From Escherichia virus TH44, in the sequence record MT446415.1: a stretch of DNA of 64,000 bases. One strand, written 5' to 3'. The translations under genes were made by a program, and so were the position numbers. The first letter of the stretch is position 1. Each line of letters begins with the position of its first letter. The notes under the pieces are model-generated. The model was not told where the DNA came from. It made no database searches and worked only from the letters and a program-made list of their open reading frames with translations. Shown in pieces: positions 13,510 to 17,029 of this stretch.

Positions 13510-13583
13510 GGCCCTGTAGCTCAATTGGTTAGAGCATCCGGCTCATAACTGGCAGGTTTCCGGTTCAAGTCCGGATGGGGCCA
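13510..13583 (+). tRNA. tRNA with CAT anticodon (Met or lysidine-type Ile2)
   Basis: Manual cloverleaf: acceptor ggccctg/tggggcc, D arm gctc..gagc, anticodon loop ctCATaa, T arm tccgg-ttcaagt-ccgga; resembles E. coli tRNA-Ile2. Confidence 0.8.
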
Positions 13584-13585
13584 CC

Positions 13586-13662
13586 CGGGGTGTAGCTCAA
13601 TTGTATAGAGCAACGGTCTTCTAAACCGTAGGTTGTGGGTTAGAATCCCACCACCCCGACCA
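13586..13662 (+). tRNA. tRNA-Arg (anticodon TCT), CCA encoded
   Basis: Manual cloverleaf: acceptor cggggtg/caccccg, anticodon stem acggt/accgt, loop ctTCTaa, T arm gtggg-ttagaat-cccac, then A+CCA. Confidence 0.88.
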
Positions 13663-14623: not shown

Positions 14624-15178
14624 ATGAAACTGTTAAAATATTTGAGTTGGATTCTGTTAGTTCCGCTGGATTTTATCTCCATGATTCTGGCCGTTATCCT
14701 GGCTCCATTTGTAGTTCCGTTCCATAATAAAAAGACTGGTAAACTTCCGTTCGGGTTTGATTGGATGATGACTTATGATAATCCGATTGATGGTGACCGT
14801 GGCCATGTCAAACGTTGGTCAAAAATCCGAAAATGGCCATTAGGTGTTTACTTCCAACGAGTAGCCTGGCTCTGGCGAAACAAAGCATACAATTTTGCTT
14901 ACCACAAGCTCGGCCGTGATTGCAATTCAGAATTCCATTATAAAGGTAATCCGGATGTTGAATCGGGCTCCCCTGATAAAGCTCATCATGGTTGGCTCTT
15001 TATGTGGACTGATAATGCATGGGGTGTTTTTGCTTCTGTTCCTTATCTTAAGGTCGGTGGAATCACCTTTTATCTGCGTGTTTATTGTGGCTGGAAGCTC
15101 AAGAGTCTTCTGTCCCGACCTATCCCTAAGGCTATGCTCGCCTTCCATATAAATCCGTTCCGCTTTTATAAGAACTAA
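14624..15178 (+). CDS. membrane protein
   Basis: Starts MKLLKYLSWILLVPLDF... after the terminator; hydrophobic N-terminus. Confidence 0.6.
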   Translation: MKLLKYLSWILLVPLDFISMILAVILAPFVVPFHNKKTGKLPFGFDWMMTYDNPIDGDRGHVKRWSKIRKWPLGVYFQRVAWLWRNKAYNFAYHKLGRDCNSEFHYKGNPDVESGSPDKAHHGWLFMWTDNAWGVFASVPYLKVGGITFYLRVYCGWKLKSLLSRPIPKAMLAFHINPFRFYKN

Positions 15179-15179
15179 C

Positions 15180-15201
15180 AGCCCGCATTGCGGGCTTTTT
15201 T
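15180..15201 (+). terminator. rho-independent terminator
   Basis: agcccgc-attg-cgggct followed by TTTTT. Confidence 0.75.
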
Positions 15202-15238
15202 ATACCCCGAATAAATTTGAAATTTTCTTCAAAAAGTA

Positions 15239-15268
15239 GTGTACATCCGAATTGACCCGGCGCATAAT
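15239..15268 (+). promoter_or_regulatory. early-promoter cassette (gtgtac-N18-cataat)
   Basis: Followed by leader gattccatactgagttac...ggagaaataaaATG. Confidence 0.55.
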
Positions 15269-15319
15269 GATTCCATACTGAGTTACACACTGAATCAAAC
15301 AAAACTTTGGAGAAATAAA

Positions 15320-15745
15320 ATGAACTTTCTGACCCTGACCTCTGCATTCTCTGTTACCCGCATCACCAACAAAATGGTTGCTGACGAAGTATGTGAAATC
15401 TGCATTCGTGAAGATGCACTTATCCATCTGACTTCAACCCAGATTGTTGCCATTGCCAAGTCCCTTAATTCTGAACTGAAGGTAAACACCAAACAGTCAA
15501 AAGAATCTATCATTGAATTAATCCAAGCTGAAATGATTGAATTCCCAATTGAAGAAGTTAAAGAAGAAAAAATCCAGTCCAAATCTGGTAATGCTCGTGA
15601 CATTTGCTTCCAGGCATTTGCAGAAATTGATATGAATGATAATGCAGCTCGTCGCGCTCTGATTGATGTTCTGGTTACCACCCATGATATCAAAAAGACT
15701 GTTGTTCAGTCATATGCTTCCAACTTCCGCAAAGCTCAAAAATAA
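15320..15745 (+). CDS. hypothetical protein
   Basis: Starts MNFLTLTSAF after the cassette leader; C-terminal module shared with the 16198 gene. Confidence 0.6.
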   Translation: MNFLTLTSAFSVTRITNKMVADEVCEICIREDALIHLTSTQIVAIAKSLNSELKVNTKQSKESIIELIQAEMIEFPIEEVKEEKIQSKSGNARDICFQAFAEIDMNDNAARRALIDVLVTTHDIKKTVVQSYASNFRKAQK

Positions 15746-15756
15746 TTGAGAAAAGT

Positions 15757-15786
15757 GTTTTACTTCCAGATGGGATAATGTATAAT
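15757..15786 (+). promoter_or_regulatory. early-promoter cassette (gtttta-N18-tataat)
   Basis: gggataa/ttatccc repeat around the -10; same leader. Confidence 0.5.
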
Positions 15787-15827
15787 TATCCCATACTGAG
15801 TTACCAAATAAAACACTGGAGAATAAA

Positions 15828-16124
15828 ATGTTTAACGCACCTGCATGGCACGCTACCCAAGCTCAAGAAGAAAACAAAGCAATCGTTTCTGCTAAAATTG
15901 AAGCTCAACTGAATGAATTGTGTGAAACTGCTTCTGAAGAAGTTGTTGCAATCATCAAACAGTATCCTGCATCCAACTACTCCCTGGCATGCATCAAAAC
16001 AGAAATGGTTAACTTGTGGCGTAAGAACAAGAAAACTTTCTTGGGTATGCAGTACCAAGCAATCGCGTCTGCAGTAGTAAACATGTATGACTTTGAAGTT
16101 TATTTCCCAACTTCTGAAAATTAA
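15828..16124 (+). CDS. hypothetical protein
   Basis: 98 aa ORF after cassette leader. Confidence 0.6.
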   Translation: MFNAPAWHATQAQEENKAIVSAKIEAQLNELCETASEEVVAIIKQYPASNYSLACIKTEMVNLWRKNKKTFLGMQYQAIASAVVNMYDFEVYFPTSEN

Positions 16125-16125
16125 T

Positions 16126-16155
16126 GTGTACTTTGGAATTTAACTAAGACATAAT
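16126..16155 (+). promoter_or_regulatory. early-promoter cassette (gtgtac-N18-cataat)
   Basis: Same architecture. Confidence 0.55.
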
Positions 16156-16197
16156 GATTCCATACTGAGTTAACAAATAAACAAACGGGATAATAAA

Positions 16198-16641
16198 ATG
16201 AAAACTTCAAAACTGGTTAAGTATGTTAAACTGGCATTAAACAACTCTTCTGAAGCTGAAGCACAATCCGCAGCACGTATGTTCTTCAAACGTCTGACAG
16301 CTGAAGGTATTTCATTTAACCCGGCAGTATTTGGTATCACTCGTGGCGAAGCTGCTAAACTGGCAACTCTGGCAGGTAAAATTTTTAAAGGTCTGAATGA
16401 TGGACAGGTTAAACCAGAAGTTAAACCTACTCCTAAAGCTGAACCAAAAGCTGAACGTAAGGCACCTAAACGCTCCGGTATGAGCAACAAAGATTTATGC
16501 TATGATATGTTCAAAACTGTTAATATGTCTAATGGTGCCGCTCGCAGGGCTGTTATTGATATGATTGTGCGTGAGTTTGGATTCAACAAAGCATCAGTTC
16601 AGTCTTATGCTTCCAACTTCCGCAAAGAATTTGAAATTTAA
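16198..16641 (+). CDS. hypothetical protein
   Basis: 147 aa; C-terminus ARRAVIDMIV...VQSYASNFRK parallels the 15320 gene. Confidence 0.6.
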   Translation: MKTSKLVKYVKLALNNSSEAEAQSAARMFFKRLTAEGISFNPAVFGITRGEAAKLATLAGKIFKGLNDGQVKPEVKPTPKAEPKAERKAPKRSGMSNKDLCYDMFKTVNMSNGAARRAVIDMIVREFGFNKASVQSYASNFRKEFEI

Positions 16642-16652
16642 TTTAAAAGGGG

Positions 16653-16682
16653 GTATACAAGCCCCCTGCTTTAAGGCATAAT
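16653..16682 (+). promoter_or_regulatory. early-promoter cassette (gtatac-N18-cataat) inside hairpin gggggtatacaagccccc
   Basis: -35 sits in the loop of a 5-bp G/C stem directly after the upstream stop. Confidence 0.5.
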
Positions 16683-16723
16683 GATTCCATACTGAGTTAC
16701 ACAATAAAACACTGGAGAATAAA

Positions 16724-17029
16724 ATGAAATTCATCATCAACCTGGCGCTTGTTGACTTTGATAAAACTGGTAATTTCGCATCTGCTGAAAATATGATTCG
16801 TAACACCAAGTTCAAAGTGCAAGTCCAACAGGCGGTAGCAAAAGAGTTCTTTACTGATAAATTAACTAACGTTGTTAATCACCTGAATGTGCAAGTTAAA
16901 TTTACTCGTGAAGCGGAAACTACTGTTGCATTTGATTTTGACTGCCAATACCATGATGAATATGTTCGCCGCATCCTGGATATCGTGTCTGACGAACTTT
17001 ATTATGGTGTACAGGAAAACAAAATCTAA
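16724..17029 (+). CDS. hypothetical protein
   Basis: 101 aa ORF after cassette leader. Confidence 0.6.
   Translation: MKFIINLALVDFDKTGNFASAENMIRNTKFKVQVQQAVAKEFFTDKLTNVVNHLNVQVKFTREAETTVAFDFDCQYHDEYVRRILDIVSDELYYGVQENKI

Follow-up and report, generated by a model that had tools for sequence, protein, structure and literature searches.

Two small genes of Escherichia virus TH44 share a predicted three-helix C-terminal module joined to unrelated N-terminal domains

We analysed a stretch of 64,000 nucleotides (nt) from Escherichia virus TH44 (sequence record MT446415.1; the whole stretch is referred to as the window), in which two small genes, here called A and B, carry the same short sequence near their 3' ends. 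This direct repeat of 31 nt, GTTCAGTC(A/T)TATGCTTCCAACTTCCGCAAAG, occupies 15704-15734 and 16597-16627 on the + strand with 30/31 identity, exactly where an initial annotation of the DNA had placed it. The two copies are the only matches in the 64-kb window with up to 3 mismatches allowed, and 100 dinucleotide shuffles gave 0 occurrences. Both are read in frame as VQSYASNFRK, corresponding to residues 129-138 of A and 134-143 of B near the two C-termini, and the second motif that the initial annotation had seen in both proteins, ARRA(L/V)ID, is present as AARRA(L/V)ID. The genes and their parts are listed below, with lengths in amino acids (aa), helices and strands by residue number, isoelectric points (pI) and the AlphaFold2 confidence score (predicted local distance difference test, pLDDT).

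15320..15745, + strand: gene A, an open reading frame (ORF) of 141 aa, equal to VR20_143 of phage VR20 and to phrog_9997 (PHROG match E 1.5e-71); pLDDT 81.
15320..15547, + strand: A-type N-terminal domain (residues 1-76); strands 3-6, 12-16 and 27-30, helices 31-36, 39-49 and 61-74; pI 4.7.
15593..15742, + strand: shared module in A (residues 92-141); helices 92-100, 108-122 and 126-140; pI 9.7.
15704..15734, + strand: first copy of the 31-nt repeat; codons for VQSYASNFRK in the core of helix 3 of A, plus the first base of the next codon.
16198..16641, + strand: gene B, an ORF of 147 aa, equal to VR20_141 and phrog_18416; pLDDT 75.6, pI 10.0, charge +12.5.
16198..16371, + strand: B-type N-terminal domain (residues 1-58), basic; helices 3-15, 19-36 and 49-58.
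16372..16485, + strand: disordered linker of B (residues 59-96), including the K/P/A-rich stretch VKPEVKPTPKAEPKAERKAPKR.
16486..16638, + strand: shared module in B (residues 97-147); helices 97-105, 113-127 and 131-145; block pLDDT 86-90 over residues 101-140.
16597..16627, + strand: second copy of the 31-nt repeat; codons for VQSYASNFRK in B, plus one base.

BLASTP comparison of A with B aligned the last 73 residues (31 identities, 42%, E 2e-17) and nothing else. The C-terminal tail described earlier as common to the two proteins is real, but it is only the end of what they share, a whole domain of ~50 residues (the module). AlphaFold2 predicted three helices for this domain in both proteins with a block pLDDT of 79-90. 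The N-terminal halves were predicted to be unlike: that of A is acidic and made of three short strands and three helices, and that of B is basic and all-helical and runs into a disordered linker (pLDDT < 50 at residues 71-93), the K/P/A stretch of which has a charge of +4.8. Comparison of the two family profiles by hhalign detected no homology between the N-terminal halves (probability 0.06%), in agreement with the initial annotation. A and B are mosaics in the sense of domain architecture and not the simple full-length paralogues that the initial annotation had named as the contrary case; their pairwise alignment covers the C-terminal part only.

Across distant phages both N-terminal types are well conserved, each with 16-20 invariant columns. 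The invariant signature is Q..V..AKS.N.E..VN.KQ in the A-type domain and KY..LALNNSS..E...A..FF..L......FN. in the B-type domain. Below-threshold matches to DUF2786 (PF10979) were obtained for the B-type domain in 4 of 9 members (best E 0.047) and cover profile positions 12-34 of 40; B of the window scored 13.6 bits where the gathering score is 23.9 bits, which makes DUF2786 a lead and not a membership. One GenBank record labels a B orthologue 'H15 domain-containing protein', a label probably due to the K/P/A-rich linker. In phage VR7 (locus L034, 1799-2005; retrieved loci carry L numbers) B is cut to a 68-aa ORF consisting of the B-type N-terminal domain alone (...LAGKICICRQD*), with e.4 immediately after it; VR7 has lost the linker, the module and several genes further downstream.

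The module also exists without either body. In PHROG searches A and B each matched their own PHROG, each other's through the C-terminus, and both matched a PHROG of 71 aa. To the last corresponds a third paralogue in phage VR20, VR20_272, which is a stand-alone module of 71 aa ending in ...VVQSYASNYMKSIKG:

VR20 163570-163785 (L009 13570-13785), - strand: VR20_272, stand-alone module, 2 nt upstream of motA; outside the window.

The promoter/leader cassette of A and B (see below) also stands before VR20_272, which is apparently co-transcribed with motA. T4 motA.1, considered as a homologue because of its equivalent position, was rejected: it is an unrelated protein of 49 aa. T4 has no copy of the family; tblastn over 50,697 phage records matched only 45, T4 not among them. 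In the family alignment a Cys and a Phe in helix 1 are invariant, as are VQSY and the following Ser in helix 3, with the Asn nearly invariant. The helix-3 core peptide, VQSYASN(F/Y)RK, shows almost no variation across the family.

A search for the module in related phages, as the initial annotation had proposed, found it in T4-like and RF1-like phages, by itself (proteins of 69-74 aa) and on variant bodies, so that its description as a module common to divergent bodies was correct. A- and B-types are both present in Morganella phage MP1 (gp117 and gp119), Erwinia phage RF1, the metagenomic T4-like contig L011, and the RF1-like contigs L014-L016, L020, L023 and L032 of ~45 kb; Acinetobacter phages 133 and ZZ1 carry the A-type only. 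Every genome with both has A and B adjacent or one gene apart. A conserved A-X-B cassette of three genes (X being the gene between A and B) was considered and rejected, since different phages have unrelated genes in the middle, or none. Scanned exhaustively with HMMER, 1.84 billion representative proteins yielded only 13 true clusters at 50% identity, with the module C-terminal in all; the variants include a B-type with a ~60-aa insert, a divergent B-like N-terminal domain, and a 74-aa protein composed of the first 12 residues of A and the module. A word-indexed search of a large database with the module profile yielded two proteins of 69-72 aa, and the full-length and exhaustive representative searches found the rest. 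Scanning metagenomes added 5 loci. A search of 185,579 species genomes of bacteria and archaea turned up no family member, and we therefore see no sign of a prophage or host origin. The family is rare, restricted to phages and unannotated, with no Pfam entry. Five long proteins (P0037-P0041, 769-3212 aa) matched module helices 1-2 in 5-12 repeated stretches each, for instance TLYSYFEKIK..EEDKKVIDTLYS in P0038; these we treated as partial matches, probably driven by the repeats.

Homologues of the A-type and of the B-type align across 97-100% of the query length, and both architectures are, from this distribution, old and stable. The RF1-like phages have a terminase and portal (Pfam Terminase_6 and Phage_portal_3) unlike those of T4-like phages, and the occurrence of the A-B pair in phages of so different a type implies transfer of the pair between unrelated phage groups. 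In seven RF1-like loci (L002, L014, L015, L016, L020, L023 and L032) the A-(variable gene)-B arrangement forms a small rightward unit between leftward gene blocks. The initial annotation had taken the 31-bp repeat as pointing to domain-level shuffling or a shared interaction module. On shuffling the evidence went the other way: the repeat falls within the coding sequence for the domain's invariant last helix, and with both architectures old and stable it is neither a junction of shuffled parts nor the scar of a recent shuffling event.

The surrounding region is 98.6% DNA-identical to Escherichia phage vB_EcoM_VR20 and 94-99% identical to 33 further records, nearly all of Escherichia and Shigella phages. 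The relatives that we opened (VR20, VR7 and SP18) are classified as Gaprivervirus, Tevenvirinae, and by sequence identity the window is that of a Gaprivervirus, a T4-like coliphage. A, X and B correspond to VR20_143, VR20_142 and VR20_141, all annotated 'hypothetical protein', and on the VR20 map lie in the variable stretch that runs from the tRNA genes to gene e. X is a variable filler; it is missing from SP18 and about 10 other Gapriverviruses, and unrelated genes take its place in other phages. All PHROGs matched by A, B, X and the module are listed with unknown function, and Pfam, NCBIfam and PADLOC scans of the four gave sub-threshold noise only. The neighbouring features are the following; the cassettes were located by repeat-family analysis, motif search and promoter scan.

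13510-13583 and 13586-13659, + strand: two tRNA genes (Rfam 62 and 74 bits), equal to tRNA-Met and tRNA-Arg of VR20.
15239..15319, + strand: early-promoter/5'-leader cassette before A; -35-like GTGTACA, N17, -10 CATAAT, leader GATTCCATACTGAGTTA and a GGAG Shine-Dalgarno sequence.
15757..15827, + strand: same cassette before X.
15828..16124, + strand: gene X, 98 aa, phrog_27242.
16126..16197, + strand: same cassette before B.
16648..16725, + strand: G5/C5 stem-loop (16648-16667), then the same cassette, before the next gene (16724-17029).
15264, 15782, 16151, 16678, 34852, 35441 and 60944, + strand: 22-nt leader motif, each copy about 45-55 nt upstream of the ATG of a small ORF.

At the position of the window's two tRNA genes SP18 has three. 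The 22-nt promoter/leader motif, ATAATGATYCCATACTGAGTTA, follows the GTGTACA -35-like box and has 7 copies in the window where 0 are expected. The same leader precedes the third paralogue of VR20 and the A, B and X genes of L011, L012 and MP1, the proteins of which are ~45-55% identical. Among IMG/VR genomes, only those of Gaprivervirus (about 9-11 copies each) and MP1 have the leader more than once.

Repeated intergenic cassettes with sigma70-like early promoters, often with a G/C stem-loop, have been described as PeSL (promoter-early stem-loop) before ORFans in hyperplastic regions of T4-type phages (Arbiol et al. 2010, PMC2839356). The locus has the same make-up: there are four cassettes with promoter-like hexamers around A, X, B and the gene after them, two stem-loops are present (15180-15196 and 16648-16667), and the genes sit in the hyperplastic tRNA-to-e region. 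Insertion or deletion of ORFans by crossover inside such cassettes has been described for RB49/phi1 (PMC2839356) and for other T4-like phages (Comeau et al. 2014, PMC4122927). In SP18, which is without X (L035 1346-1430), the B promoter joins the left half of the X cassette to the right half of the B cassette; the crossover falls within the leader that both have in common, at CCATA(C/T)TGAGTTA..AAATAAA. Gain or loss of X together with its cassette (15757-16197) is a textbook PeSL-type exchange. Active recombination in the region runs through the promoter cassettes between genes and not through the 31-bp repeat; the 893-bp deletion expected from recombination between the repeat copies was found in none of the relatives listed (30 of 34 records).

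The 32 nt that follow the B tail, AATTTGAAATTTAATTTAAAAGGGGGTATACA (16628-16659, including the last codons and stop of B), are 78% identical to 15214-15245 just upstream of the A promoter, which suggests either a shared cassette boundary or a remnant of an older tandem arrangement. In the same area there is a sub-threshold Rfam match to the enterobacterial small RNA STnc370 (15170-15237, - strand; E 0.016), with 36.7 bits where the gathering score is 54; the overlapping GC-rich terminator hairpin at 15180-15196 is probably its sole cause.

Some identity of the two repeat copies at the DNA level is expected because the VQSYASNFRK peptide is highly conserved. The copies share 9 of 10 codons, with P(>=9) = 0.0011 under the codon usage of the window and 0.006 under the more biased usage of the two genes themselves. 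Elsewhere in the module identical residues have the same codon at 5 of 12 positions, and comparison with the rest of the globally aligned A and B proteins (17/31 same codon) gave a Fisher p = 0.047, an excess that is only marginal because the repeat was picked post hoc. As DNA the repeat is not under constraint. In the third paralogue of VR20 the codons for this peptide differ at 9 of 30 bases, four synonymous sites within the repeat are polymorphic in the genus (including TCA/TCT in both A and B), and the A and B tails of RF1-like phages share only background codon identity (4/9 to 5/10, ~50%). The RNA folds of the two copies are unlike and not significant (z -1.6 and -1.5), and no Rfam family covers the repeat.

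The codons of the B tail may reflect an exchange between the genes. B of the window uses GCT/TCC/CGC, as does A of the window and of L011, and B of L011, L012 and MP1 uses GCA/TCT/CGT throughout. The tail of B in the window accordingly matches A of L011 at 9/9 codons and its own orthologue, B of L011, at 6/10. Short-patch gene conversion from A to B in the Gaprivervirus lineage is likely, on the strength of three sites in a repeat chosen post hoc (Fisher p about 0.05). The near-perfect DNA identity is lineage-specific and probably due to the invariant peptide, codon bias and short-patch conversion together.

Residue 8 of the tail, encoded by 15725-15727 in A and 16618-16620 in B, is the variable (F/Y) position. 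It is always concordant between A and B of one genome; of 11 loci (L002, L003, L011, L014-L016, L020, L023, L030, L032 and the window), 4 have F/F (the window, L011, L014 and L030) and 7 have Y/Y (RF1, MP1, L015, L016, L020, L023 and L032). Phe is encoded by TTC wherever it was seen in the retrieved loci. This pattern would imply at least two independent F/Y switches, one in the T4-like and one in the RF1-like clade. The codons around residue 8 differ in L014, and recent conversion is therefore not the cause of F/F there. The third paralogue of VR20 is discordant, with Y at residue 8 where A and B have F.

What the module does was approached through its predicted fold. The AlphaFold2 model, a confident one, has three helices with a helix 2-turn-helix 3 arrangement in which helix 3 is long. 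Both the modules (pI 9.0-9.7) and B as a whole (pI 10) are basic. The best small-domain fold matches of A were DNA-bound BEN domains and homeodomains. A profile search of Protein Data Bank (PDB) sequences returned one marginal match, homeodomain 3 of ATBF1 (2da3, E 0.007-0.011), with an alignment that spans helix 2, the turn and helix 3 and puts the Tyr, Asn and Arg of the module on homeodomain W48, N51 and R53. An hhalign comparison with a hand-typed 10-sequence homeodomain alignment gave the same register, weakly (P 0.011, probability 3.7%). At homeodomain positions W48, F49, N51 and R53 the module thus has Y, A, N and R in this marginal alignment; Asn and Arg are the same, the Trp change is conservative and the Phe change is not. 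A pattern G-x-x-K-x-V-Q-S-Y-x-S presumably resembles Xre-type turn/helix-3 motifs.

We propose, as the best-supported reading, that the module is a homeodomain/BEN-like helix-turn-helix (HTH) with VQSYASN(F/Y)RK as a putative recognition helix, which may bind DNA. Several results set limits to the proposal. With a cutoff as loose as E <= 10, the homeodomain family PF00046 matched neither A nor B nor one of the 9 module sequences, no HTH family (HTH_3 and relatives, of Xre/Cro type) was among the Pfam hits at that cutoff, and the module does not combine a profile match to the BEN domain PF10523 with its helical DNA-binding fold of ~90 residues. Foldseek with the whole B model found nothing in the PDB below E 0.5, and no NCBIfam or PADLOC model matches the module. 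The fold match is non-specific, and we do not claim membership in the homeodomain, BEN or Xre families.

The joint explanation that we favour, with a probability of about 0.6, has several parts. A and B are two early genes with their own promoters in the hyperplastic region of a T4-like genome, each protein combining an unrelated N-terminal domain and a flexible linker with the same ~50-residue three-helix domain at the C-terminus. The module would be an HTH-like domain in which helix 3 serves for recognition and directs the paralogues to the same nucleic-acid target or class of targets, where the different N-terminal domains may act differently. The near-perfect DNA identity of the repeat would be a side effect of an invariant peptide and biased codons rather than a functional DNA element.

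The same facts could be accounted for by a module that binds protein, either by dimerisation (A with B or with the third paralogue) or by docking on the same protein of host or phage, for example RNA polymerase, with helix 3 as the contact surface. The near-invariance of ten residues in a row extends to every face of helix 3, A and B stay no more than one gene apart in phage groups that are unrelated, and the stand-alone copy adjoins motA. Three-helix bundles are also generic binders, and designed miniproteins scored equal to homeodomains as fold matches for B. The F/Y concordance, for which the codons of L014 argue against recent conversion as the cause, and the persistent linkage of A and B keep this interaction or heterodimer explanation the main rival. 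We nevertheless consider it unlikely. Basic modules and the histone-tail-like linker of B fit nucleic-acid binding better, the small-domain fold matches of A are DNA-bound proteins, and in the alignment of the turn and helix 3 the Asn and Arg of the module coincide with N51 and R53, which contact DNA; the concordance itself amounts to perhaps 2-3 independent switches and fails in the third paralogue of VR20. Descent of A and B as full-length paralogues from a tandem duplication, with N-terminal halves diverged beyond recognition, would explain their similar lengths (141 and 147 aa), their position as neighbours on the same strand, the shared promoter cassette and the equal placement of the module. 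This is most improbable given the hhalign result, the unlike predicted folds (strands and helices in A, all helices and a disordered linker in B) and the presence of the module alone and with other N-terminal variants; moreover, conservation of each N-terminal type across distant phages makes fast divergence unlikely.

A further explanation would assign the function to the 31-nt stretch itself, as a recombination hotspot, a nuclease or RegB-type site or an RNA structure, with protein conservation secondary. The 9/10 codon identity does exceed the expectation from codon usage, several non-preferred codons (TCC and CGC) are in common, and short repeats in the region do recombine. Against these stand the 9 of 30 differing bases of the third paralogue in the same genome, the variation at synonymous sites within the genus, the background codon identity of the RF1-like tails, the unlike and non-significant RNA folds, the missing Rfam match and the lack of an 893-bp deletion among the relatives listed. 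The explanation is largely refuted, and we give it hardly any weight.

A more specific and improbable extension of the recognition-helix proposal is that A, B and the stand-alone paralogue are early factors sharing one recognition helix for one common target. In its concrete version the target would be the leader CCATACTGAGTTA, which precedes all three paralogue genes and about ten early genes per genome; the module would then belong to a phage-encoded switch on the early regulon, with the N-terminal domains giving different outcomes. As an operator the leader was set aside and is kept only as speculation: co-occurrence is the argument for it, and RF1-like and Acinetobacter phages carry the family without the leader. 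In a variant, A and B would form an obligate heterodimer, which would explain both the concordant F/Y change and the persistent A-B linkage.

T4-like phages carry hundreds of early ORFans without known function. Three ORFans per Gaprivervirus genome, with their relatives in Morganella, Acinetobacter and Erwinia phages, are here brought into one small unannotated domain family, which links three PHROGs of unknown function and supplies a defined construct for binding assays. Its role is open to testing, as an HTH-like and probably nucleic-acid-binding module with an invariant helix. The locus also displays recombination on two scales within one hyperplastic region: cassettes are exchanged between genes in the PeSL manner, and short-patch conversion may act inside genes. 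The module is a real and fairly ordinary unannotated phage domain; domains shared between different bodies and homogenisation of paralogues are expected in phage genomes, and nothing is overturned.

Among known systems, homeodomains (engrailed 1du0, MATalpha2 1k61 and ATBF1 HD3 2da3) resemble the module at the level of the fold only. The module has no basic N-terminal arm signature, carries Ala in place of F49 and Ser in place of Q50, contains an invariant Cys in helix 1 and belongs to a phage-only family. BEN domains (Bsg25A 4x0g, BEND6 7yul, NACC1 8yzs and BANP 7yuk) are larger, with about 90-100 residues and 4-5 helices, so that only part of one could match the module, and they have no sequence similarity to it (4-13% identity, no Pfam match). 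To T4 MotB, Ndd, Alc, Arn and MotA there may be a functional analogy only: these proteins are likewise small, early and non-core, and B has a basic, putatively DNA-binding character, but no sequence relationship to the A/B family exists. The genomic arrangement has its closest counterpart in the PeSL system, with the A/X/B cassettes and the X indel as in the PeSL papers. PeSL exchange explains whole-gene shuffling between cassettes, the shared domain and the intragenic 31-nt repeat lying outside its scope, and the leader in the present phages reaches further downstream of the -10 box than the described PeSL core.

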